From positions 128,515 to 192,514 of the forward strand of contig JAXLVH010000007.1 in assembly GCA_046329105.1 (NCBI GenBank): a stretch of 64,000 nucleotides of DNA. Reading direction: 5' to 3'. The notes under the pieces were generated by a model. The model had not been told where the DNA came from, did no database searches, and saw nothing but the letters and a program-made list of their open reading frames with translations. Position 1 is the stretch's first letter; each line of letters opens with the position of its first letter. A program made the position numbers and the translations under genes. Shown here in pieces: positions 35,375 to 44,771 of this stretch. The stretch comes from Flavobacteriales bacterium. Its GTDB lineage: Bacteria; Bacteroidota; Bacteroidia; Flavobacteriales_F; PHOS-HE28.

Positions 35375-36553
35375 ATGGCACACAATCCCTTGATAGACAG
35401 AGGGCTTCTTGTCGTTGTACTGGACCGACTGCACCACTTCCCCGCAGCAGCCATTCTGGGCCCCCGGCAAATCGGCAAGACCACACTCGCACGCATGGTG
35501 GCGGAGCGCGTTGGCAGGCCGGTGTTGTGGCTCGATCTGGAGCGCCCTTCGGATCGCGCTCTCCTGACGGATCCGTACGCCTACCTGCCGCAACATGCCG
35601 ACAAATTGGTAGTGATCGACGAGGTGCAGCGCATGCCCGAGGTGTTCCAGGCGCTTCGCGTGCTGATCGACGAGCGCCGCCGCCCGGGGCGCTTCCTGCT
35701 GTTGGGCTCCTCATCGCCCGAGATCGTGCGCCGCGCTGCCGAATCGCTGGCAGGCCGCATCGCATACATGGACCTCTATCCGCTCAACATGCTGGAAGTC
35801 GGCATGGACCACGCACATGACCTGTGGCTGCGTGGTGGTTACCCCGATGCCTTCCTGGCCCCTTCGAACGGACAGGCGGCCCATGTGCAGCTGGCCATTC
35901 TACGTTCGTTGGTGGAGCGCGATCTGCCCCAACTCGGCCTACCCGCCGCGCCGGAGGTCACGTTCACGCTCCTGCGCATGCTGGCATCGGTGCATGGCCA
36001 GCCGCTCAACATGAGCATGCTGGCCAAGTCCATGGGCCTCACGGTGAGCACCGTGCGTACCTACATCGAATTCTTCGCGCAGGCGTACATCGTTTTCCGC
36101 TTGTACAGCCACCACACCAACACGCGCAAGCGGATCACCAAGGCGCCTAAACTGTACATCACCGACAGCGGCCTGCTGCATGCGCTGCTCAACATCACGG
36201 AATTGGACCAGCTCCGCGCCACGGCCCTCATCGGGCTTTCGTGGGAGGGCTTCGTGGTGCAACAGGTACGAGCGTGGGTGGGCGGCAGGGCCGAACTGCA
36301 CTACTTCCGCACACAGGACGGGGCCGAGCTCGACCTGGTGATCACCCAGGGCACGCGGCCCATGGCGGCCATCGAGATCAAGACCACCGATGCTCCCACC
36401 TTGAGTCGCGGCAACCGCTTCGCCTTTGATGCGGTGGGCGCTCCCGTTGCGCTGATCTGCACACCAACTGCGCAGGACCATGCGCATGGCGGCGGGGTCC
36501 AGGTGTGCTCCTTGGGCACGCTGTGGGCGCATCTGGACCAGGCGCTGCGGTGA
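35375..36553 (+). CDS. AAA+ ATPase with DUF4143 C-terminal domain (AAA_14 family)
   Basis: Walker A GPRQIGKTT, Walker B VVIDEVQ, and a DUF4143-like C-terminal half. Host-like GC. Confidence 0.8.
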   Translation: MAHNPLIDRGLLVVVLDRLHHFPAAAILGPRQIGKTTLARMVAERVGRPVLWLDLERPSDRALLTDPYAYLPQHADKLVVIDEVQRMPEVFQALRVLIDERRRPGRFLLLGSSSPEIVRRAAESLAGRIAYMDLYPLNMLEVGMDHAHDLWLRGGYPDAFLAPSNGQAAHVQLAILRSLVERDLPQLGLPAAPEVTFTLLRMLASVHGQPLNMSMLAKSMGLTVSTVRTYIEFFAQAYIVFRLYSHHTNTRKRITKAPKLYITDSGLLHALLNITELDQLRATALIGLSWEGFVVQQVRAWVGGRAELHYFRTQDGAELDLVITQGTRPMAAIEIKTTDAPTLSRGNRFAFDAVGAPVALICTPTAQDHAHGGGVQVCSLGTLWAHLDQALR

Positions 36554-36663
36554 TGGTCCTCCCGCGCGACTTGGCGCAGCACCGTGCAGGCGGCTATATT
36601 GGCGGCTGGGTTCGTAAAAGGCACACCCGTTCGGCGGATGAACGAAGATCTACGTCGATTCAA

Positions 36664-37736
36664 CGTTAGCCGCAATTAAAACAGACCATGAGTGTTGAGA
36701 TAACTTTATATACTAAAAAATCAACCAAGACGGGATTGATAAAATTTCTGTCAGCAAATAATTTTAAGAAAGCTAGACATTTCATTGATGAGATGAACAC
36801 GCCTGAGAGGATTGGTTTTATGTGGTTTGAATATGACAACTATGAATCAACAACTGGTGTGGAGGCAACAGTAATAAAAATATCAGAGGAAGATAGATAT
36901 AAATATAATTGCTCTGATTGGATATTACACACAAGAACACGAGCCAGTGGGTCATTTGAGGATAAACAGAAGCAGAATGAAATAATAAAAACTGCAAGAC
37001 AGCAATTTGGAGGAACATTATACAACGATTGGTACGGAACAAATAAATATACCAATTTAGATGACTACAGGAAGTTTTCTGCACTTGAAAAGGGTATATC
37101 AATTATAGCCAACGGTTCTTTGGAGAAACTCTCACAAATAAGAAATTGCCTAAATGATTATAGGAACGAAATGTCAGAGACCCTGGCAAACATAAAACCA
37201 GAAAGTATGCGAACAATGCTTGTTTCAATAGACCCAAGTATTGTTCTTTACAACAGTTTAATGCCTTTTCTAGTTTCTGTAATTGAATATTTTTTCGGAC
37301 AAATCTTTGCAAATTATATAAAATACCATGAATCTTCAAGGCGTATGTTAGCCGAAGAAAAAGTAAAGATTGAAATATCAGACGTTATAAGCATCTTAAA
37401 AAGTGAAGATTCCCTTGAACAAATTGTGATGAAGTCTTACAATTTTCAAAATCTTGACTCAATCAACAAAGCATTCAAAAAATACACCTCCATTGATATC
37501 AACGAAACTTTAAGTCAAAAGAAGAAAGTTAGCGGAAAGATAATTAGGGTTTTGACAAACCTAGAGGCCATATTGAACGCAAGACATAAGTTTGTTCACG
37601 AACTTGACATTGATTACTGTTTATCCAAAGAAAAATATTTAGTCAATGTTTCAACGGTGGAAAAGGCGATAGAGTTGACTATTCAACGAATTAAGAAAGA
37701 TGGATTGAATATTGAAATTGAACACTAGCAGCGGCT
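36664..37736 (+). mobile_element. AT-rich (~33% GC) single-gene cassette bracketed by 9-bp inverted repeat GTTAGCCGC / GCGGCTAAC
   Basis: The compositional break against ~66% GC flanks is sharp. The inverted repeat lies 16 bp upstream of the ORF start and overlaps its stop codon. Confidence 0.55.
36688..37728 (+). CDS. hypothetical 346-aa protein with C-terminal HEPN-like motif (Rx4H: NARHKFVHE)
   Basis: Foreign AT-rich codon usage. The Rx4-6H motif near the C-terminus is the HEPN RNase catalytic signature seen in Abi-type proteins. The N-terminal ~250 aa match no family. Confidence 0.5.
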   Translation: MSVEITLYTKKSTKTGLIKFLSANNFKKARHFIDEMNTPERIGFMWFEYDNYESTTGVEATVIKISEEDRYKYNCSDWILHTRTRASGSFEDKQKQNEIIKTARQQFGGTLYNDWYGTNKYTNLDDYRKFSALEKGISIIANGSLEKLSQIRNCLNDYRNEMSETLANIKPESMRTMLVSIDPSIVLYNSLMPFLVSVIEYFFGQIFANYIKYHESSRRMLAEEKVKIEISDVISILKSEDSLEQIVMKSYNFQNLDSINKAFKKYTSIDINETLSQKKKVSGKIIRVLTNLEAILNARHKFVHELDIDYCLSKEKYLVNVSTVEKAIELTIQRIKKDGLNIEIEH

Positions 37737-38070
37737 AACACGGTTTTTGCGTCAGGAGGGCTGACGTGCAATCTTGGAACTTTGTGCTCCGAAACCCGCC
37801 CGAACACAAAGCCCGAAACCGTTAGCGGCACCCCTTCGGAAAGGCAATGAGGTTCGGCACGCACAACGCGGGCACCCCTGCATAGCACATGAATGGCGGA
37901 CTCCCCTGGGCGGCAAGGATCATCGGCAGGGGTGCGTTCGCCCAGGCCGGGATCGAGGTTCCGGTGGAGGCCGATCCGGTCGTTGCTGGAATGCCTCCGA
38001 TCGGGCGCGATCATTCCGAAGCGCATCTGCTTGCGTGATCCGACCCGTCCCGCCGTCCCGCGTTGATCCC

Positions 38071-39661: not shown

Positions 39662-40588
39662 TCATGACGCCAGGAAATCCAGGTTGCGGCGCAATCCCGC
39701 GTATTTGGTGCGTTTGACGGCGCTGCCTTCGAAGAGTTCATCAAAGAGCACCTCGGTCATGTCGTGCCATTCCGCGCTGGAGAGGTCCATCACCCGCTCC
39801 TTCGGTGCGAAGTCGGGCTCATTGTGCGCCGTGCTGAATCGATTCCACGGGCACACGTCCTGACAGATGTCGCAACCGAAGACGCGGTCTGCGAATCGCG
39901 CACGCAGATCCTGCGGCAGCGCGTCCTTCAGCTCGATCGTGAAATAGCTGATGCATTTGCTACCGTCAACCTGATATGGGGCGATGATCGCATCGGTGGG
40001 GCAGGCATCGATGCACCGGCGGCAGGTGCCGCAATGGTCGGTGGCGGGCGCATCGGTCTCCAACTCAAGATCGGTGATCAGTTCGCAGAGGAAAAAGAAG
40101 GAACCCGCACCCTGGCGGATCACGTTGGTATGCTTGCCCTGCCAGCCGATGCCCGCACGTTGGGCCCACGCTTTCTCCAGCACCGGGGCGCTGTCCACGA
40201 AGGCGCGCATGTCCACATCGCCGAAGTGCTCCACGATGAAGGCCATGAGGGGCTTGAGCCGCTTCTTCACCACCTTGTGGTAGTCGCGGCCGTAGGCGTA
40301 GGTGCTCAGTTTGGGTGCGGCGGGGTCCGTCTGCTTCACTGGCGTGTGGTAGTTGTACGCCAGGCTGATCACGCTCTTCGCGCCAGGAACCAGTTTTCGG
40401 GGATCCAAACGCATATCGAAGTGGTTGCCCATCCAGCCCATCTCCCCTTGGCGGCCTTCGCGCAGCCATCGCTCCAAGCGGGGCGCTTCCTCCTCCAGGA
40501 AAGCGGCCTTCGCCATACCGCACGCCATGAACCCGAGTCGATGGGCTTCGGCCTTGATCAGGTCGGCCTTCTCGCGGGGTGTGCGCAT
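39662..40588 (-). CDS. queG: epoxyqueuosine reductase
   Basis: QueG N-terminus plus 4Fe-4S ferredoxin motifs (CGTCRRCIDACPTDAI). Confidence 0.9.
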   Translation of the reverse strand: MRTPREKADLIKAEAHRLGFMACGMAKAAFLEEEAPRLERWLREGRQGEMGWMGNHFDMRLDPRKLVPGAKSVISLAYNYHTPVKQTDPAAPKLSTYAYGRDYHKVVKKRLKPLMAFIVEHFGDVDMRAFVDSAPVLEKAWAQRAGIGWQGKHTNVIRQGAGSFFFLCELITDLELETDAPATDHCGTCRRCIDACPTDAIIAPYQVDGSKCISYFTIELKDALPQDLRARFADRVFGCDICQDVCPWNRFSTAHNEPDFAPKERVMDLSSAEWHDMTEVLFDELFEGSAVKRTKYAGLRRNLDFLAS

Positions 40589-40718
40589 GCGGGCAAGGTA
40601 CAGGCACCGGAGGACCGTTCACAACCGGCCTTACCAGCGTGCCTTCTTGTTCCTGTCCGTTCGATGGCCGGAACAAGATCACTCGCTCGGGATCGGCCGA
40701 CTGAAGAAGGGGTTGGGA

Positions 40719-40877
40719 TCAGGGCTTGATGCCCACCAGCTTGCCGTCCTGGATCACCCACACCTTGGTGCCATGCATCTTGGCAATGCGACGGGCCTCC
40801 TTCGCGGCCCGTTTGAGGGCCTTCGTGACCGCGTCCACAAATTCGTCCGACTGCTTCTTTGCGGATGTTTTACTCAT
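40719..40877 (-). CDS. 52-aa hypothetical protein translationally coupled to the zeta-toxin-like gene
   Basis: MSKTSAKKQSDEFVDAVTKALKRAAKEARRIAKMHGTKVWVIQDGKLVGIKP. Its ATG overlaps the upstream gene's stop (ATGA). It is below the ORF-track size cutoff. Confidence 0.5.
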   Translation of the reverse strand: MSKTSAKKQSDEFVDAVTKALKRAAKEARRIAKMHGTKVWVIQDGKLVGIKP

Positions 40878-41398
40878 GGGTGTCGCTCAAGTAGTAAGGG
40901 AACAGGACCGGAGTTCTCATACACCGCCCAAACATCAGCAAGCGGGCGATAGAGCGCCGCGAAGTTAGGCCATCCGCGTTCGTAGCGTCTACGCACATCG
41001 GCATCCGGCACATGGTGCCCACCATGCTTCACCCGGTGGGCTACACGTCTGATCGCCAGTTCTGCGGACTCCAGCCGAAGGAAGACGATCTCGATGCGGT
41101 AACCATTGTCCTTCATGCGTCGAAGCAGATCCACGTAGGTACGGCCGCTCAGCGTGGATTCCAGCGCGAACGATTCACCTTTTCTGGTCAACCGCTCCAG
41201 TTCCGACAACAACAAGCGACCAGCCGCGCGAGCAGCGAGTTCAGGGTGCAACGGAGAGAGGCCCGAGGCGATCAGGTCCGCATTCACGAAGTGCAGAACA
41301 CCCTCTGCCTCAGTAAGGAACTGACGTGCGAAGGTGGTCTTCCCCGCCCCGTTCGGACCGGCAATGATGATGCACCGGGGTGAAGTGCGCTTCTTCAT
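40874..41398 (-). CDS. zeta-toxin-family P-loop kinase (AAA/UDP-GlcNAc kinase-like)
   Basis: Walker A IIIAGPNGAGKTT near the N-terminus and ~170 aa size typical of zeta toxin domain proteins. Confidence 0.7.
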   Translation of the reverse strand: MKKRTSPRCIIIAGPNGAGKTTFARQFLTEAEGVLHFVNADLIASGLSPLHPELAARAAGRLLLSELERLTRKGESFALESTLSGRTYVDLLRRMKDNGYRIEIVFLRLESAELAIRRVAHRVKHGGHHVPDADVRRRYERGWPNFAALYRPLADVWAVYENSGPVPLLLERHP

Positions 41399-41724
41399 CG
41401 GGCCGTCAACGTGGCCTGACCACCGCATGCCAAGCTCGCGAAGATCAACGTAACTTCGGCTTTCATGGGTTCCCTGTTCCCTGTTCCCTGTTCCCTGTTC
41501 CCTGTTCCGGTTCCAAGCAGCAGATCATCTACGCTCATTCGATAAAGACCTGCCAGCTTGATGGCCCGTTCCGCGCTCAGTTTCACATGCGCGCTTTCCA
41601 ACTCGCTATATGCGGACTGCCCGATGGCCAGCACCTCGGCCAGATCCTCCTGGCTCAGGCCATGTGCCGAACGCAACTCCAGCAAGCGAAGAGCGATGCG
41701 CTTCTGTTCGCGACGATGCTCCAT
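41395..41724 (-). CDS. XRE-family helix-turn-helix protein (putative antitoxin/regulator) with repeat-encoded C-terminal tail
   Basis: HTH LSQEDLAEVLAIGQSAYSELES. The C-terminus GTGNREQGTGNREQGTGNREP is encoded by the heptamer tract. The start is uncertain (Met at 41724 or 41763). Confidence 0.55.
   Translation of the reverse strand: MEHRREQKRIALRLLELRSAHGLSQEDLAEVLAIGQSAYSELESAHVKLSAERAIKLAGLYRMSVDDLLLGTGTGNREQGTGNREPMKAEVTLIFASLACGGQATLTAR
41470..41504. repeat. heptanucleotide tandem repeat (TTCCCTG)x5
   Basis: Five perfect 7-nt units, read directly. They lie inside the 3' coding tail of the HTH gene, ~70 nt upstream of the toxin start. Confidence 0.9.
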
Positions 41725-41832
41725 GAAGCACGAAAGTATACCAGCAACACGCAATATCGGCATTGCCAATGACGATCCGCCGCTTGTTGCTCGAACATTC
41801 GCTCTCACCCTCAAATGGACGAACTTCATGGC

Positions 41833-42309
41833 ATGAGAACGATGATCGGTTTCGCTTGCGCAGCACTGTTGCTGGCAGGTTGTCAGAAAGAAGAGCCTGC
41901 CTCGGACAAAACCAATGTTGTGGCGAACGAGAGTGGCGATAGGGCCATCAAGCTGCGCACGATGGTCTGCGGCGGATGTGACCAGGATGGACACGATTGC
42001 GATTGGTGCGAGTGCGGCGGAGTCCCTTCCAATTGCTTACCGGACGTCATTGTCACCCGGCTTCACAAGCCTGCGGTGGATGAGGTCATCACGGCCATCC
42101 GATCCGGGGATCAGTCCAGTATCAAAACCGCATTCTCGGCGAACGCTTCTGTGCTGGCCCACTACCTGATCGTATCGGATATCGATGCGGTGATCACTGG
42201 CGACGCCTTGGCAACTTCGGAACCCCGCAGCCATGGTGAGCGCTTCATAGTCATTAGCGACCTCCACGATGCCGTCATTTCGGCGTATCCACTTTATGAG
42301 GAGGAATAG
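41833..42309 (+). CDS. hypothetical Cys-rich lipoprotein
   Basis: Lipobox LLLAGCQ and a CGGCDQDGHDCDWCECGG segment. Confidence 0.5.
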   Translation: MRTMIGFACAALLLAGCQKEEPASDKTNVVANESGDRAIKLRTMVCGGCDQDGHDCDWCECGGVPSNCLPDVIVTRLHKPAVDEVITAIRSGDQSSIKTAFSANASVLAHYLIVSDIDAVITGDALATSEPRSHGERFIVISDLHDAVISAYPLYEEE

Positions 42310-42408
42310 ATGGCCGAAGATCCATGCCATCCCTTTTGGCGGGCTGTCCAGCATTGGTCGATATGCCGCAGCCCATGGAGCCAAGGCATAGTTCTTCCTT
42401 CGTGCTAT

Positions 42409-43605
42409 ATGGCTGCATTGGTCGCTGTGATGGTGGCTTTAGGGTCTTGCCGCAGCGCGCCCCCTTCAGAAATAAAACTTGGATGGGGCGATAGCCTTAC
42501 CTACAACACAGGGTTTGCGGTCACCGCTCATCTGAGCGGGCGATGTCCGTGCCCAGACCGTGCGGACAAGAGTGAATGCGTCTATTTCGCCGATGCGGTC
42601 ACTGAGAAGAAAATCGCAATTTTCTCCCTCACAGGATTGTTACTCCAAACCGTCCCACTCGGCGAGGTGCTGAACAACCTCCATCAGATTGATGGTATCA
42701 CTGTGCTGCACCCGGACACCATTGTCATCAACGGAAAGTACAATAACAGGGTCGCCATCATCGACCGGACGGGCCGTTGTTCGGTATTGGCTGACCTTAG
42801 CGAACACATGCGGCGACCTGATGGTTTGACCTACGAACTCTGGACCTCGAATTTCGGCCCATTCGTGCTCGAAAAGCACCTATGCTTCCATGTCTCGCTG
42901 GTCGCCAATTCGATCGGCGGATATTGTGGCCAAGATGCGCCGCGTGTGAATGAAACGTACAGGTATGAATGGCTGGACCGAAACGGCCCCCACTTCGCCT
43001 CCCTCTCATTGGACTCTATAACCGATGGACCACGACTAATATGGGGCCCAACCGAATCGGACAAAGACACCATCCAGAATATCGCGCTGGTGCATCGCCT
43101 CGGATCCTATGCATGCGTCAATGGGCTATGGTTCGCTTTCTCGATCAACAGCCCCGACATCCTCATTCTTGACCCGGTGCGGATGCGCGACGTACGGCGC
43201 ATCCCAGTGCGTTCAGACTTCACCTCCACCTGTCGCGAGCCGGTGATGCTGCCCAAAGGCAAGGTACTCAACCTGCAAGACTCGCTGAATGACAGGCTGT
43301 ACAACGGCGGCTTCATCGAAACCATCCATTTCGATCGACCCAGCCAGCGCTATCTTGTGATTTTGCGCCACCGCGTCATCAAGGAGATCATGGATGGGAA
43401 AGAGCACCGACGCGGGGCCTATACCTTGCAGCAATACGACCGCGACTTCAATTTTATCAATGAAACGCCCATCACCGACAACAAGCACAAATTGCCCTTC
43501 ATGCTCTGTCTCCCGCAAGGCACTTACGTCATCCGTTCCGAGAGCAAACGGGAGAAGATGCGCGGCGTACACATATATGATCGCATCCTGCTTGATGAAC
43601 AATAA
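42409..43605 (+). CDS. hypothetical lipoprotein
   Basis: Lipobox VALGSC at the chosen internal start. No family recognised. Confidence 0.45.
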   Translation: MAALVAVMVALGSCRSAPPSEIKLGWGDSLTYNTGFAVTAHLSGRCPCPDRADKSECVYFADAVTEKKIAIFSLTGLLLQTVPLGEVLNNLHQIDGITVLHPDTIVINGKYNNRVAIIDRTGRCSVLADLSEHMRRPDGLTYELWTSNFGPFVLEKHLCFHVSLVANSIGGYCGQDAPRVNETYRYEWLDRNGPHFASLSLDSITDGPRLIWGPTESDKDTIQNIALVHRLGSYACVNGLWFAFSINSPDILILDPVRMRDVRRIPVRSDFTSTCREPVMLPKGKVLNLQDSLNDRLYNGGFIETIHFDRPSQRYLVILRHRVIKEIMDGKEHRRGAYTLQQYDRDFNFINETPITDNKHKLPFMLCLPQGTYVIRSESKREKMRGVHIYDRILLDEQ

Positions 43606-44089
43606 GACCGTTCCAGCATTCGTACTGCTTTCGGTGGTCGCGGGCTGCCAACACGTGGGCGCGGGCAAGGACAGTGCTACCGAGCAGCTGCGCGGCCTGG
43701 TAGGCCAGTACCGGAACGATGTGCCCATGTCGGGACTGAAATCGATCCTGGTCGTCACTGAAGAAGGATGCCCCGGGTGCAACAAGTCCCTGGCCCGGCT
43801 GGTGGAAGACTACCTGGCCGATACATCAACTCTGGTATGGGTATCCGCCGTGGGGGGCATGGTGGACATCAGCCCCTTCAAAGCCGAGCCGGAACGCGTG
43901 GTTTGGGACTATGGCGATAGTCTGCGGTCCCTCGGGATCATCAAAGGCTCCGGTGCCATCTTTTTGGACTCGGGCAAGATCGATACGGTCATCCAGCTTG
44001 ATGCCCGCAACCTGGGGACCGCGTTGGCGTTGGTTTCCGACCGCCTGAGCACGCCGGCCAACGCTCCGGCGGACAACCCCTCCAGATAG
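43595..44089 (+). CDS. hypothetical lipoprotein with thioredoxin-like CxxC (CPGC)
   Basis: Lipobox VVAGCQ and a CPGC motif. Confidence 0.5.
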   Translation: MNNKTVPAFVLLSVVAGCQHVGAGKDSATEQLRGLVGQYRNDVPMSGLKSILVVTEEGCPGCNKSLARLVEDYLADTSTLVWVSAVGGMVDISPFKAEPERVVWDYGDSLRSLGIIKGSGAIFLDSGKIDTVIQLDARNLGTALALVSDRLSTPANAPADNPSR

Positions 44090-44119: not shown

Positions 44120-44584
44120 TCATTGTTTCCTTCGTTTCAACTCATGCACATCCAGCAGATCCTTCGGACGTGCGCTGCGCACCTTGCTCTCGATCAGGTC
44201 GTCCCGGCCGATCACCCGGTAGCGTGCCAATGGTACCCCGTCCGTTTCGGCGAGTACGCACCGCGACCACGCCTCTTCGAAGGTGCATCCGGGGTTGAAG
44301 CGCGTGATCAATTCGATCTCCTGCTCCGGCGAGATCTTGATCGAAATGTTCTGCTCAGCGGCCAACACCTTCGTCGGGAGCGCGTCGACCTCGTAGCCTA
44401 TGGCCTTCAGCACCGTCAGGAGCCTGTTGAAGTTCTCTGGTGAAGATTCGATCCACAGGTCAATATCGGCTGAATGACGTTTGTAGCCATGGTGATTCAC
44501 CGCCGCGCCTCCGACCATGATGATGCGCAGGCCCTCCCGCTGGGCCAATGAAAGGAACACCTTGACCTCAGCCTCGAACTCCAT
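44120..44584 (-). CDS. nucleotidyltransferase-like protein (putative)
   Basis: GG..N..G..R...DIDLWI is reminiscent of the minimal NTase fold (GS/GG...D.D). Weak call. Confidence 0.35.
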   Translation of the reverse strand: MEFEAEVKVFLSLAQREGLRIIMVGGAAVNHHGYKRHSADIDLWIESSPENFNRLLTVLKAIGYEVDALPTKVLAAEQNISIKISPEQEIELITRFNPGCTFEEAWSRCVLAETDGVPLARYRVIGRDDLIESKVRSARPKDLLDVHELKRRKQ

Positions 44585-44771
44585 CCGCCCGCTTCCAGAT
44601 GATGAAGTTGCCCTTCGCCTCTCCGCGCTCTTCCCGCGTTGGGGGGTTGCGGGTGATCTCGCGCAGATACAGCGCCAAGCGCTCCCACGGTGTCAGCGCC
44701 ATGAACTCCCGCTCGCGCCGGGCGTTGCTCTCCTCCTTCGTCTCAAAACGGATACGGGGATCGGTGCGCAT
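44568..44771 (-). CDS. small hypothetical protein overlapping the start of the NTase-like gene
   Basis: 67-aa ORF with a 17-nt overlap with the downstream gene. No family recognised. Confidence 0.3.
   Translation of the reverse strand: MRTDPRIRFETKEESNARREREFMALTPWERLALYLREITRNPPTREERGEAKGNFIIWKRADGVRG

Follow-up and report, generated by a model that had tools for sequence, protein, structure and literature searches.

Repeat-driven phase variation is, to our knowledge, known almost solely from host-adapted pathogens, in surface structures or restriction-modification genes, and the Bacteroidota are better known for invertible promoters. In the phase-variable restriction-modification genes of Campylobacter and Helicobacter (e.g., cj0031/cj0032), repeat length fuses or splits adjacent open reading frames (ORFs), which we take to be the same behavior as at the locus described here, a heptanucleotide tract between a regulator gene and a kinase gene in a 64-kb stretch of Flavobacteriales DNA (the window, by which we mean the whole stretch). 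Tracts of the cj0031/cj0032 type are homopolymeric (poly-G or poly-C), belong to host-adapted pathogens, and have a non-functional split state, whereas the window has a heptameric unit, an environmental host from the Bacteroidota, and two halves that both stay potentially functional. A heptanucleotide repeat within coding sequence underlies the phase variation of NeuO, an O-acetyltransferase of the E. coli K1 prophage CUS-3 (PMC13001214). The tract of the window resembles that of NeuO in having a 7-nt unit within an ORF, in the return of the frame at every third unit with in-frame units adding a 7-aa module, and in a unit number that differs among natural genomes (PMC13001214). The NeuO tract, however, sits at the 5′ end, toggles between ON (n divisible by 3) and OFF, spans 3–53 units, and has a measured rate (PMC13001214), while the tract of the window is placed between two domains or genes, spans 2–8 units, and has out-of-frame states that are not null.

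The kinase and its neighbors recall several toxin–antitoxin systems. The AvrRxo1:Arc1 pair of Xanthomonas is similar in that the toxin is a zeta-family kinase and the antitoxin is encoded downstream (PMC4938570), but AvrRxo1 has 414–421 aa and a type III secretion signal and phosphorylates NAD, compared with 174 aa in the window kinase, and Arc1 is a helical protein of 98 aa with a YY motif, to which the window's 52-aa basic partner, a predicted helix plus hairpin, has no similarity. The kinase Rv0366c is likewise short (197 vs 174 aa) and likewise lacks the GTXR UDP-GlcNAc motif, and its Walker Lys and Ser/Thr, Asp, Arg, and His residues (K15/S16/D36/R116/H122), compared by residue positions, have the same spacing as K20/T21/D41/R122/H128 of the window kinase (PMC6362051); the antitoxin of this PezAT-Mtb system, Rv0367c (RHH plus a PezA-like domain), is encoded upstream, and a small downstream partner is not described. 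PezA shares with the window an XRE helix-turn-helix (HTH) upstream of the toxin, omega-epsilon-zeta shares the three genes with a separate regulator, and EzeT is a zeta toxin fused in cis to a partner domain (PMC10532202), although the gene order here is regulator, kinase, small protein and the fusion partner at this locus is a DNA-binding domain and not a demonstrated antitoxin. The first-pass annotation of this DNA had called the gene order non-canonical; unusual it is, but both of its elements have precedents, the downstream antitoxin in AvrRxo1:Arc1 and the upstream XRE HTH in PezA. In our full-text literature searches, no toxin–antitoxin module under SSR control came up, and literature searches for COG4185 and for phase-variable toxin–antitoxin systems returned nothing or nothing relevant.

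Organization of the locus

Three genes on the minus strand make up the locus. The XRE-type HTH gene (41724..41395; ATG at 41724, stop at 41397..41395) encodes 109 aa in the window, where the repeat number n is 5, and its product comprises the HTH domain (residues 1–70), the repeat-encoded GTGNREQGTGNRE, and a 24-aa tail. Its TGA stop overlaps the ATG of a zeta/PezT-like P-loop kinase gene (41398..40874; ATG at 41398, stop at 40876..40874; 174 aa), and a 52-aa gene (40877..40719) follows 3′ of the kinase across a further ATGA, such that two ATGA overlaps join the HTH, kinase, and 52-aa genes. ORFs and translations thus bear out the three overlapping genes and both junctions as originally annotated. 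A second in-frame ATG is located 5′ of the kinase start, at 41428, and corresponds to a 184-aa product.

The HTH start is separated by a divergent intergenic region of 90 nt (41725..41814) from a plus-strand three-gene lipoprotein-like operon (ORF map). This region is the presumed promoter/operator region. No sigma-70-type promoter, terminator, or inverted repeat of at least 8 nt was found upstream of the HTH gene in a scan that does not cover Bacteroidota promoters, and 40000..42500 had no Rfam matches. A GCAAT-N6-ATTGC element (5 + 5 nt) was noticed by eye in 41725..41814. The divergent neighbors vary in annotated length (431/398/391 aa and 164/158/155 aa) and were considered as a second variable site, which we rejected, since the differences are consistent with alternative starts, Met34/Met41 and Met7/Met10, that precede lipoprotein signal peptides.

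The heptanucleotide repeat, the length-variable element of the locus, occupies 41469..41508 and reads on the minus (coding) strand as (GGAACAG)x5 at 41508..41474 followed by GGAAC; the (TTCCCTG)x5 initially annotated at 41470..41504 is the same tract in a different register. Tandem Repeats Finder reported a single period-7 array at 41469..41508 (5.7 copies, 100% matches, score 80), by far the strongest tandem array in the 64-kb window and the only perfect repeat there to combine a unit of at least 4 bases with at least 4 copies. Even three tandem units had an expectation of 0.00 in 100 dinucleotide-preserving shuffles. The tract is perfect, has a unit not divisible by 3, and lies within or adjoining an ORF, as expected of an SSR contingency locus, and it is placed 3′ of the complete HTH domain, 75 nt before the kinase ATG.

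Reading frames generated by the repeat

Modeling the frame through the repeat and the spacer that leads to the kinase ATG (41399..41468, minus strand) for n=1–9 yielded three recurring outcomes. With n=2, 5, or 8, a separate HTH protein is coupled to the kinase through ATGA; with n=3, 6, or 9, HTH and kinase form an in-frame fusion (278 aa at n=3); and with n=1, 4, or 7, the HTH gene stops early, as at n=4, where a truncated HTH ends in ..GNP* 67 nt upstream of the kinase start and the spacer is untranslated. The spacer accordingly encodes the HTH tail at n=2, 5, and 8, and the fusion linker HESRSYVDLRELGMRWSGHVDGP at n=3. The first-pass annotation had held that one unit more or less would alter the C-terminus and stop of the HTH gene as well as its overlap with the kinase start. 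The register does move as predicted in all three respects, but the in-frame HTH–kinase fusion had not been foreseen.

None of the three frames destroys the kinase ORF, and all of them retain the kinase's own ancestral start codon, which means that the repeat is not a simple toxin ON/OFF switch and that it is architecture and coupling that change. The original proposal of a switch controlling a toxin therefore holds as far as the change of frame but not as plain ON/OFF control, and the phenotypic effect of the frame changes may be small given that the kinase start is kept throughout. The 24-aa HTH tail occurs in several amino-acid variants and contains no recognizable domain. In an AlphaFold2 model of the n=3 fusion, built on an alignment from which HTH-only sequences were left out, five helices were placed at 2–70 and residues 71–107 had pLDDT values below 50, and the linker between HTH and kinase is thus predicted to be disordered.

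Length alleles in public assemblies

Alleles with n=2, 3, 4, 5, and 8 were found at the same syntenic locus in public assemblies of one wastewater Flavobacteriales species, at loci 99.2–99.97% identical to the window; repeat number thus varies among close relatives, where the first-pass annotation had named invariance as a ground for refutation. The n=3 allele was carried by L001–L010 and L019 and the n=5 allele by L011–L018 and L020–L023. Exact-sequence look-ups matched the predicted n=2 product to P0132 and the predicted n=4 product to P0121, and the listed members of the same clusters added further n=4 (P0126, P0144) and n=8 (P0125) forms; these protein-derived alleles were confirmed by the DNA of L069–L075. 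The modeled products for n=1, 6, 7, and 9, along with further n=8 and n=2 variants, were absent from the protein collection in exact look-ups. When JGI metagenome contigs were scanned with a gapped DNA pattern for n=1–9, three matches were returned, all n=5; the scan is no guide to frequencies, since it missed a JGI n=3 contig known by another route.

The possibility that the differences in repeat number are artefacts of assembly or sequencing is negligible in our estimation. All of the data are metagenome assemblies, several of the allele-bearing contigs measure 0.7–1.3 kb, and some (L023, L070) end near the repeat; nonetheless, n=3 and n=5 each occur, with identical flanks, in at least 10 independent samples that span projects and assemblers (ENA, JGI, NCBI MAGs, Logan), n=4 occurs in three independent samples, and the tract, at 14–56 nt, is below read and k-mer length and differs by exact multiples of 7.

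Repeat length and flanking haplotype are separable. Over 4.6 kb, L019 (n=3) does not differ from the window (n=5) at any variable site. Backbone A was found with n=3, 4, and 5 and backbone B with n=3 and 5, a variant-block background with n=4 and 5, and recombinant backgrounds with n=2 and 5; the n=4 allele appeared on two A-type backgrounds. That n=3 and n=5 both turn up on each of the two flanking SNP backbones indicates that length changes independently of the flanking haplotype, although n=3 is mostly linked to backbone B and n=5 to A, a linkage that is not complete, and recombination could have contributed by carrying alleles between backbones. The n=4 allele is rare (3 loci plus 4 listed protein forms, each from 1–2 contigs), compared with tens each for n=3 and n=5. 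No sample among the approximately 40 assembled contigs showed two alleles. Slippage would be the mutational process behind this series.

Several of these observations suit a neutral account, in which a microsatellite arose by chance duplication in a tolerant linker and drifts in length, fusing and splitting the genes without regulatory or adaptive role. By about residue 70, ahead of the repeat, the HTH domain is complete, and disorder is predicted for the linker; the kinase holds the ancestral start of HTH-less homologues; the tail of the coupled state is short, variable, and not recognizably conserved; the two common alleles are largely haplotype-linked; and the tract, with its range of 2–8 units in public assemblies, is short and the sole SSR locus in 64 kb of a genome that does not look SSR-rich. 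We nevertheless regard neutrality as possible but doubtful. Five alleles and repeated homoplasy at about 99% identity imply that the tract mutates far faster than point substitutions accumulate, the tract is free of imperfections in every allele, and the marked under-representation of n=4 relative to n=3 and n=5 suggests selection among states. The coupling, too, is likely to matter, given a GC-rich leader without an obvious initiation signal and a lineage in which the kinase start overlaps the upstream stop.

The kinase and its small partner

Assignment of the kinase to the zeta-toxin family, made at first from its Walker motif, gained support from Pfam and Foldseek, which place it in the zeta/PezT superfamily. 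It matched Pfam Zeta_toxin PF06414 with E=4.4e-12 and 46.3 bits against a cut-off of 22.3 (profile positions 12–175 of 199), a family found in all 120 homologues among the matches listed, and its top Foldseek matches were PezT and zeta. The Walker A motif GPNGAGKT at residues 14–21 was invariant in 30 homologues. Also invariant is D41 (FVNAD), 21 residues after the Walker Lys, whose putative equivalence to the catalytic substrate-deprotonating Asp of the family (Asp67 in zeta, Asp66 in PezT, Asp36 in Rv0366c, with K15 preceding D36 in the latter; PMC6362051) is by spacing only. The UDP-N-acetylglucosamine-binding motif GTXR is absent from the kinase, where the conserved segment is ESTLSGxTY instead, and by analogy with the argument made for Rv0366c (PMC6362051) the substrate is probably not UDP-GlcNAc. 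The start of the kinase, MKKRTSPRC..., matches that of HTH-less homologues.

Could the frame changes simply be disabling indels in a gene that is dispensable or harmful? Nearly all backbone-B n=3 contigs carry the substitutions G14D, in the invariant first glycine of Walker A, and A112L, as does one n=5 contig, and toxins of the AvrRxo1 type are often inactivated in nature (PMC4938570). Such decay is improbable, however, as an account of the locus as a whole. Every backbone-A and recombinant-backbone contig with n=2, 3, 4, or 5 encodes one and the same intact kinase, except L017 (n=5), whose kinase has three substitutions and is still full-length; 15 of the 22 polymorphic kinase sites are synonymous; the kinase ORF survives all frames; no stop or frameshift was seen inside the kinase or 52-aa gene in approximately 40 contigs; and the 52-aa protein is identical or one residue different in all locus contigs. 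That G14D might be specific to the fused state was considered and rejected, as L075 combines G14D with n=5.

The 52-aa protein is basic (pI 10.4), with no family in Pfam, NCBIfam, or PADLOC and no meaningful match among PDB sequences, where only de novo designed helices were hit (E>0.3). A profile search recovered 328 representative relatives, the alignment of which has the invariant core KRAAKEARR..HGTK.W. In a model of the natural kinase–small-protein fusion P0023, computed from an alignment of such fusions and of kinases, the small-protein part forms a helix at 184–211 and a hairpin at 215–227, such that the 52-aa protein is predicted to be one long helix plus a beta-hairpin. The partner lies directly 3′ of the kinase in at least 26 of the 32 loci with a full-length kinase, across many phyla (Verrucomicrobiota, Dehalococcoidia, Nitrospirales, Planctomycetota, Proteobacteria, Cyanobium, and others), and the next ORF after the kinase begins at −3 in 14 of these loci. 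Neighbors of the pair vary and are often restriction-modification (HsdS-like) or helicase genes. Natural fusions of the kinase with the small protein are occasional (P0023, P0028, P0050, P0051) and may be frameshift errors. Where a conserved trio had first been supposed, the conserved unit is the kinase and its downstream small protein, and the HTH gene is confined to this species and one sister species.

The pair has the generic layout of type II toxin–antitoxin systems, i.e., small co-directional genes that overlap or abut and stay paired across contexts, and the 52-aa protein is a candidate antitoxin or cofactor. A tentative alternative, which we judge possible without favoring it, sees no toxin–antitoxin system in the pair: the kinase would be a non-toxic enzyme acting on nucleic acids or nucleotides (e.g., in repair or modification), the small basic protein would serve it as cofactor or as DNA/RNA-binding partner, and the repeat would modulate a regulator–enzyme fusion instead of a toxin. 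The very basic character of both proteins (pI about 10), the missing GTXR motif, the stable synteny of the pair beside dxs in related Flavobacteriales, and the lack of a match of the kinase/52-aa pair to any PADLOC or NCBIfam toxin model are compatible with such a role. Against it stand the above-threshold Zeta_toxin match and the best Foldseek matches (PezT, zeta), the catalytic-residue spacing equal to that of the validated short toxin Rv0366c, the 60–64% identity of the pair across phyla and in unrelated contexts, as mobile toxin–antitoxin or defence modules typically show, and the tiny overlapping partner gene, which they typically include.

Origin of the HTH gene

The HTH protein matches Pfam HTH_3 (E=1e-10, residues 16–68), and it has no counterpart of the three-helix toxin-binding domain of the epsilon/PezA type, with predicted disorder following residue 70. 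No relatives of it were found beyond the window's species and the sister-species protein P0008, and a phmmer search with the window's HTH (E<=0.01) detected neither an HTH nor any other conserved upstream gene in 38 loci from other phyla, nor was one seen in the nearest HTH-less relatives. In P0008, a non-repetitive linker joins HTH and kinase into one protein of 271 aa that has no internal ATG; this length equals 278 minus 7 aa, the equivalent of zero repeat units. The fusion, fixed in the sister species, is common among the natural alleles of the window's species. In the HTH-less relatives P0006 and P0010, the kinase and 52-aa genes sit directly behind dxs, with a GTGA overlap in L065. Judging from this distribution of sequences, the HTH is a recent addition in the window's lineage, and it was probably first joined to the kinase as a fusion. 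The dxs-linked relatives with their GTGA overlap indicate that the kinase has been read in tandem with whatever ORF precedes it, and translation of the kinase may depend on the upstream ORF.

Proposed mechanism

We lean, with slightly better than even confidence, towards the reading that a hypermutable SSR in a disordered linker makes three interconvertible HTH/kinase architectures and that the kinase and 52-aa protein form a toxin–antitoxin-like pair. Gain or loss of a 7-nt unit, most simply by slipped-strand mispairing, would shift the frame of the HTH relative to the kinase. In state F (n divisible by 3), a single HTH–linker–kinase polypeptide would be made; in state C (n = 2 mod 3, as in the window), the HTH stop would fall on the kinase start, with the kinase and 52-aa protein translationally coupled; and in state T (n = 1 mod 3), the HTH would be truncated just past the repeat, 67 nt upstream of the kinase, and coupling would be lost. 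These three states would be heritable and interconvertible, and switching may be slow, if the 2–8 units here are set against the 3–53 of NeuO. The kinase and 52-aa genes would constitute an old, widely transferred two-gene module, most plausibly toxin–antitoxin-like, in which the antitoxin gene comes after the toxin gene, as in AvrRxo1:Arc1; the roles of the kinase as toxin and of its partner as antitoxin are thus putative.

A bolder version, which we consider rather unlikely, is that of a three-state contingency switch of a zeta-like toxin kinase, alternately HTH-tethered, co-translated with a 52-aa antidote, or uncoupled at low expression, that serves bet-hedging at the population level, the pair being an undescribed phylum-spanning toxin–antitoxin family. 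The DNA-tethered fusion would then be self-repressing or held inactive on its own operator, and the module would be of the toxin–antitoxin or abortive-infection type in an uncultured free-living member of the Flavobacteriales. Any adaptive, bet-hedging value of the repeat variation is, in our view, conjectural.

Conclusions

The locus presents a coding heptamer in environmental Flavobacteriales that occurs in at least five lengths and by which a regulator and a toxin-like kinase are fused, coupled, or uncoupled. The kinase and 52-aa pair is a widespread, uncharacterized two-gene family that would lend itself readily to toxin–antitoxin and phage-defence screens. Should the states prove phenotypically distinct, contingency loci would reach toxin–antitoxin or defence-type modules and free-living bacteria, a logic of domain fusion would take its place beside ON/OFF switching, and the alleles would offer a natural linker-length series for study.

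Module architecture and reading frames

The minus strand of the window carries three consecutive open reading frames in the same orientation, with ATGA overlaps at both junctions. The first encodes an XRE-type helix-turn-helix (HTH) protein of 109 aa (ATG at 41724, TGA at 41397..41395; Pfam HTH_3, E=1e-10, residues 16-68), the second a 174-aa P-loop kinase with the Walker A motif GPNGAGKT (ATG at 41398, running to 40874), and the third a small basic protein of 52 aa (40877..40719) without a match in Pfam, NCBIfam or PADLOC. Inside the HTH gene, ahead of the kinase start, lies a perfect period-7 array (41469..41508; coding strand (GGAACAG)x5 then GGAAC), to which Tandem Repeats Finder assigned 5.7 copies with 100% matches. 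It is the sole sizeable perfect repeat within the 64 kb, and three tandem heptamer units were expected 0.00 times in shuffled sequence. The genes, overlaps and tract were thus accurately described in the first-pass annotation.

The further claim that gain or loss of a unit shifts the HTH frame, its stop and its relation to the kinase start was borne out by rebuilding the locus in silico with 1-9 units (n; five in the window). In the modelled n=2, 5 and 8 alleles, the HTH frame extends 24 codons beyond the repeat and stops within the ATGA of the kinase start; at n=3, 6 and 9 the HTH and kinase frames merge into one HTH–linker–kinase protein (278 aa at n=3); and at n=1, 4 and 7 the HTH ends right after the repeat (...GNP, then stop), 67 nt short of the kinase ATG. 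All three registers are found in nature, and the kinase and 52-aa ORFs are intact in each.

Natural length alleles

The best kinase homologue (P0001; 99% identical), from Flavobacteriales metagenome-assembled genomes, is a 278-aa protein with HTH and Zeta_toxin domains that matches the modelled n=3 fusion exactly. Among the fetched homologous loci, three units were present in L001-L010 and L019 and five in L011-L018 and L020, at 99.2-99.97% identity to the window, and synteny was kept throughout (dxs, two small genes, three divergent genes, the module, queG and a START-domain gene). When the modelled products were looked up as exact sequences among about 15 billion proteins, those of n=2 (P0132) and n=4 (P0121) were present and those of n=1, 6, 7 and 9 absent, while members listed in the same clusters comprised further n=4 products (P0126, P0144) and one of n=8 (P0125). 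Contig DNA of the look-up alleles bears out these unit counts, and a pattern scan of JGI contigs gave three additional n=5 cases. The variation in repeat number on which the first-pass annotation had staked its reading is therefore present in close relatives, at n=2, 3, 4, 5 and 8. Tens of contigs carry n=3 and tens n=5, with only three to four carrying n=4, a scarcity that may be due to selection against uncoupling or to history alone.

The 1.1-kb module contains 37 SNP sites that resolve into two main backbones, A (that of the window) and B, plus recombinants. Backbone A occurs with n=5 (the window and many others), n=4 (L072, L073) and n=3 (L019), the last being the same as the window at all variable sites over the 4.6 kb compared; an A-type background with 12 clustered SNPs occurs with n=5 (L017) and n=4 (L071). 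Backbone B occurs with n=3 (L001-L010) and n=5 (L075), recombinant backgrounds with n=2 (L069) and n=5 (L021, L074), and n=8 (L070) sits on another variant background. Because five lengths and homoplasy are found at about 99% identity, and the tract is perfect in every allele, these alignments show a tract that mutates much faster than its surroundings. Such is the behaviour expected from slipped-strand mispairing, which is supported here at the population level; within single samples, no two length alleles were seen in the assembled contigs. The slippage proposed in the first-pass annotation is thus supported for populations, on the five lengths and the homoplasy; the repeat is not a plain ON/OFF switch of a toxin.

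The 12 clustered SNPs of L017 and L071, at kinase codons about 40-67 (window about 41200..41280), cause S45T, R57C and A58T on an otherwise near-identical background, and look like a short recombination tract from a diverged allele.

Identity of the kinase and the small protein

The kinase was correctly called zeta-toxin-like, as it matches Pfam Zeta_toxin (PF06414) at E=4.4e-12 and 46.3 bits (cut-off 22.3), and the structure modelled for P0023, a natural fusion of kinase and small protein (mean pLDDT 81), had PezT (2p5t) and zeta (3q8x, 1gvn) as its top Foldseek matches (E about 1e-8). Pnkp1 was the sole full-length match in a PDB profile search. Residues G14, K20, T21, D41, R118, R122 and H128 are invariant, and the GTXR UDP-GlcNAc motif is absent from the kinase. 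GTXR is also absent from Rv0366c, a 197-aa zeta-like toxin that is bacteriostatic and neutralised by its neighbour (PMC6362051); going by residue numbers rather than an alignment, the spacing of Lys/Thr, Asp, Arg and His here appears to match that reported for it. In the P0023 model the 52-aa protein is predicted to form one long basic helix and a beta-hairpin, and it shares with the kinase a pI of about 10. There are precedents for zeta-family toxins with a downstream antitoxin (AvrRxo1:Arc1; PMC4938570), for an upstream XRE HTH partner (PezA) and for partner and toxin fused in cis (EzeT; PMC10532202). Based on the Foldseek matches, residue spacing, lack of GTXR and these precedents, we file the kinase within the zeta/PezT superfamily, as neither a canonical UDP-GlcNAc kinase nor part of an epsilon/zeta or PezAT operon; a putative toxin with a downstream antidote is the most likely working model, one that we favour with reasonable confidence but do not regard as established.

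Single ORFs joining kinase and small protein (P0023, P0028, P0050, P0051; 225-253 aa) occur occasionally in low-coverage contigs; they are either genuine Rosetta-stone fusions or errors that shifted the frame at the ATGA overlap.

Origin and distribution

The kinase query matched 7889 proteins; all 120 of the matches listed are 63-99% identical, about 175 aa long and carry the Zeta_toxin domain, and a profile search with the 52-aa protein yielded 328 representative proteins. In one-genome-per-species contigs, 32 loci contained a full-length kinase, with the small partner directly downstream in at least 26 and the first ORF after the kinase beginning at -3 in 14 of those loci. Hosts of the pair include Verrucomicrobiota, Sumerlaeota, Dehalococcoidia, Nitrospirales, Planctomycetota, Cyanobium and several Proteobacteria, and the surveyed neighbourhoods are unrelated, with HsdS-like, UvrD-like and large helicase or methylase-like genes among them. 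These homologues mark the kinase and its small partner as an old and widespread pair. Upstream of it, a relative of the window's HTH was not detected at any of the surveyed loci (phmmer, E<=0.01). Across phyla, at loci L024-L056, the small partner, a basic, predicted helix-hairpin protein of roughly 50 aa, has the core motif RAAKxARRxAxxHGT[KP]xxxxxDGK. The pair is often beside restriction-modification or helicase genes, as in L050, which has an HsdS-like C-terminus upstream, and in L024, where genes of 989 aa and 888 aa flank the pair.

In the closest HTH-less relatives, likewise Flavobacteriales (kinases P0006, 85% identical, and P0010, 79%), the pair lies immediately behind dxs (L065 2480..2520, L066 2470..2520), the kinase start overlapping the dxs stop (GTGA) in L065; dxs is 93/89% and the kinase 85/79% identical to those of the window. 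This synteny is unusually stable for a presumed toxin–antitoxin pair. The window lineage has about 3 kb inserted between dxs and the kinase, comprising a 67-aa gene, a DUF6036/AbiEii-like nucleotidyltransferase, three divergent lipoprotein-like genes and the HTH, relatives of which were found in this species and one sister species only. In the sister species, HTH and kinase form one 271-aa protein (P0008; kinase 85% identical), 7 aa shorter than the n=3 fusion. Since P0008 is fused, its linker is non-repetitive and it has no ATG at the kinase start, the heptamer tract is an expansion specific to the window's species, within the linker of an HTH–kinase gene that was probably fused beforehand. 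AlphaFold2 modelled the n=3 fusion as five HTH helices (2-70), a segment with pLDDT below 50 (71-107) and then the kinase, so the repeat is predicted to lie in a disordered linker tolerant of 7-aa insertions. The three-gene module first suggested thus needs revising: the locus is no conserved trio but a conserved two-gene core with a recently added HTH, variably fused to the kinase.

Within the insert, the 67-aa gene overlaps the 154-aa nucleotidyltransferase gene directly downstream of dxs (44120..44771, minus strand; Pfam 8e-06, PADLOC AbiEii 9e-04), and the two are probably a second toxin–antitoxin-like pair. The three divergent genes (41815..44089, plus strand; longest ORFs 164, 431 and 164 aa) carry signal sequences of the lipoprotein type (LLLAGC, MVALGSC) and matched nothing in Pfam or PADLOC. 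They and the HTH gene flank a common 90-nt intergenic region, and the HTH may chiefly regulate these three genes. On the other side of the module, colinearity with the backbone-B locus L001 stops at 37885, leaving a strain-variable segment (window about 35375..37885, L001 7792..8837) in which L001 has a GmrSD_N (DUF262) type IV restriction-like protein and the window instead an AAA_14/DUF4143 ATPase (35375..36553) and a weak HEPN (RiboL-PSP) protein (36688..37728). The segment looks like a small flexible defence islet.

Proposed working of the locus

The kinase of this lineage would always be read in tandem with a preceding ORF, dxs in the relatives and the HTH here, and its leader is GC-rich with no obvious independent initiation signal. 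For both reasons, output of the kinase and small protein would follow the upstream ribosomes, which would stop at the ATGA (n=2, 5, 8), continue through the fusion (n=3) or stop 67 nt early (n=4). In the fused form, the kinase would be bound to the DNA sites and dimer of the HTH, which could change autoregulation and kinase availability. Several features speak against a strong adaptive role of the repeat: the kinase start is retained, the tail unconserved, the tract short and haplotype linkage partial.

Backbone B (L001-L010, L075) carries G14D in the invariant first Walker A glycine (codon 14, 41357..41359), to which A112L is added in the ten full-length B contigs (L001-L010). G14D is probably a kinase-dead allele common in the population and, affecting an invariant glycine, points to a kinase that part of the population can do without or carries at a cost. 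A tie between G14D and the fused state was ruled out, as the substitution occurs with n=5 as well as n=3.

The locus is a putative SSR contingency locus whose nearest analogue is NeuO, likewise with a heptamer repeat, although at 3-53 units the NeuO repeat makes the tract here short by comparison (PMC13001214). It is unusual in its host, its target and its three-state fusion/fission outcome.
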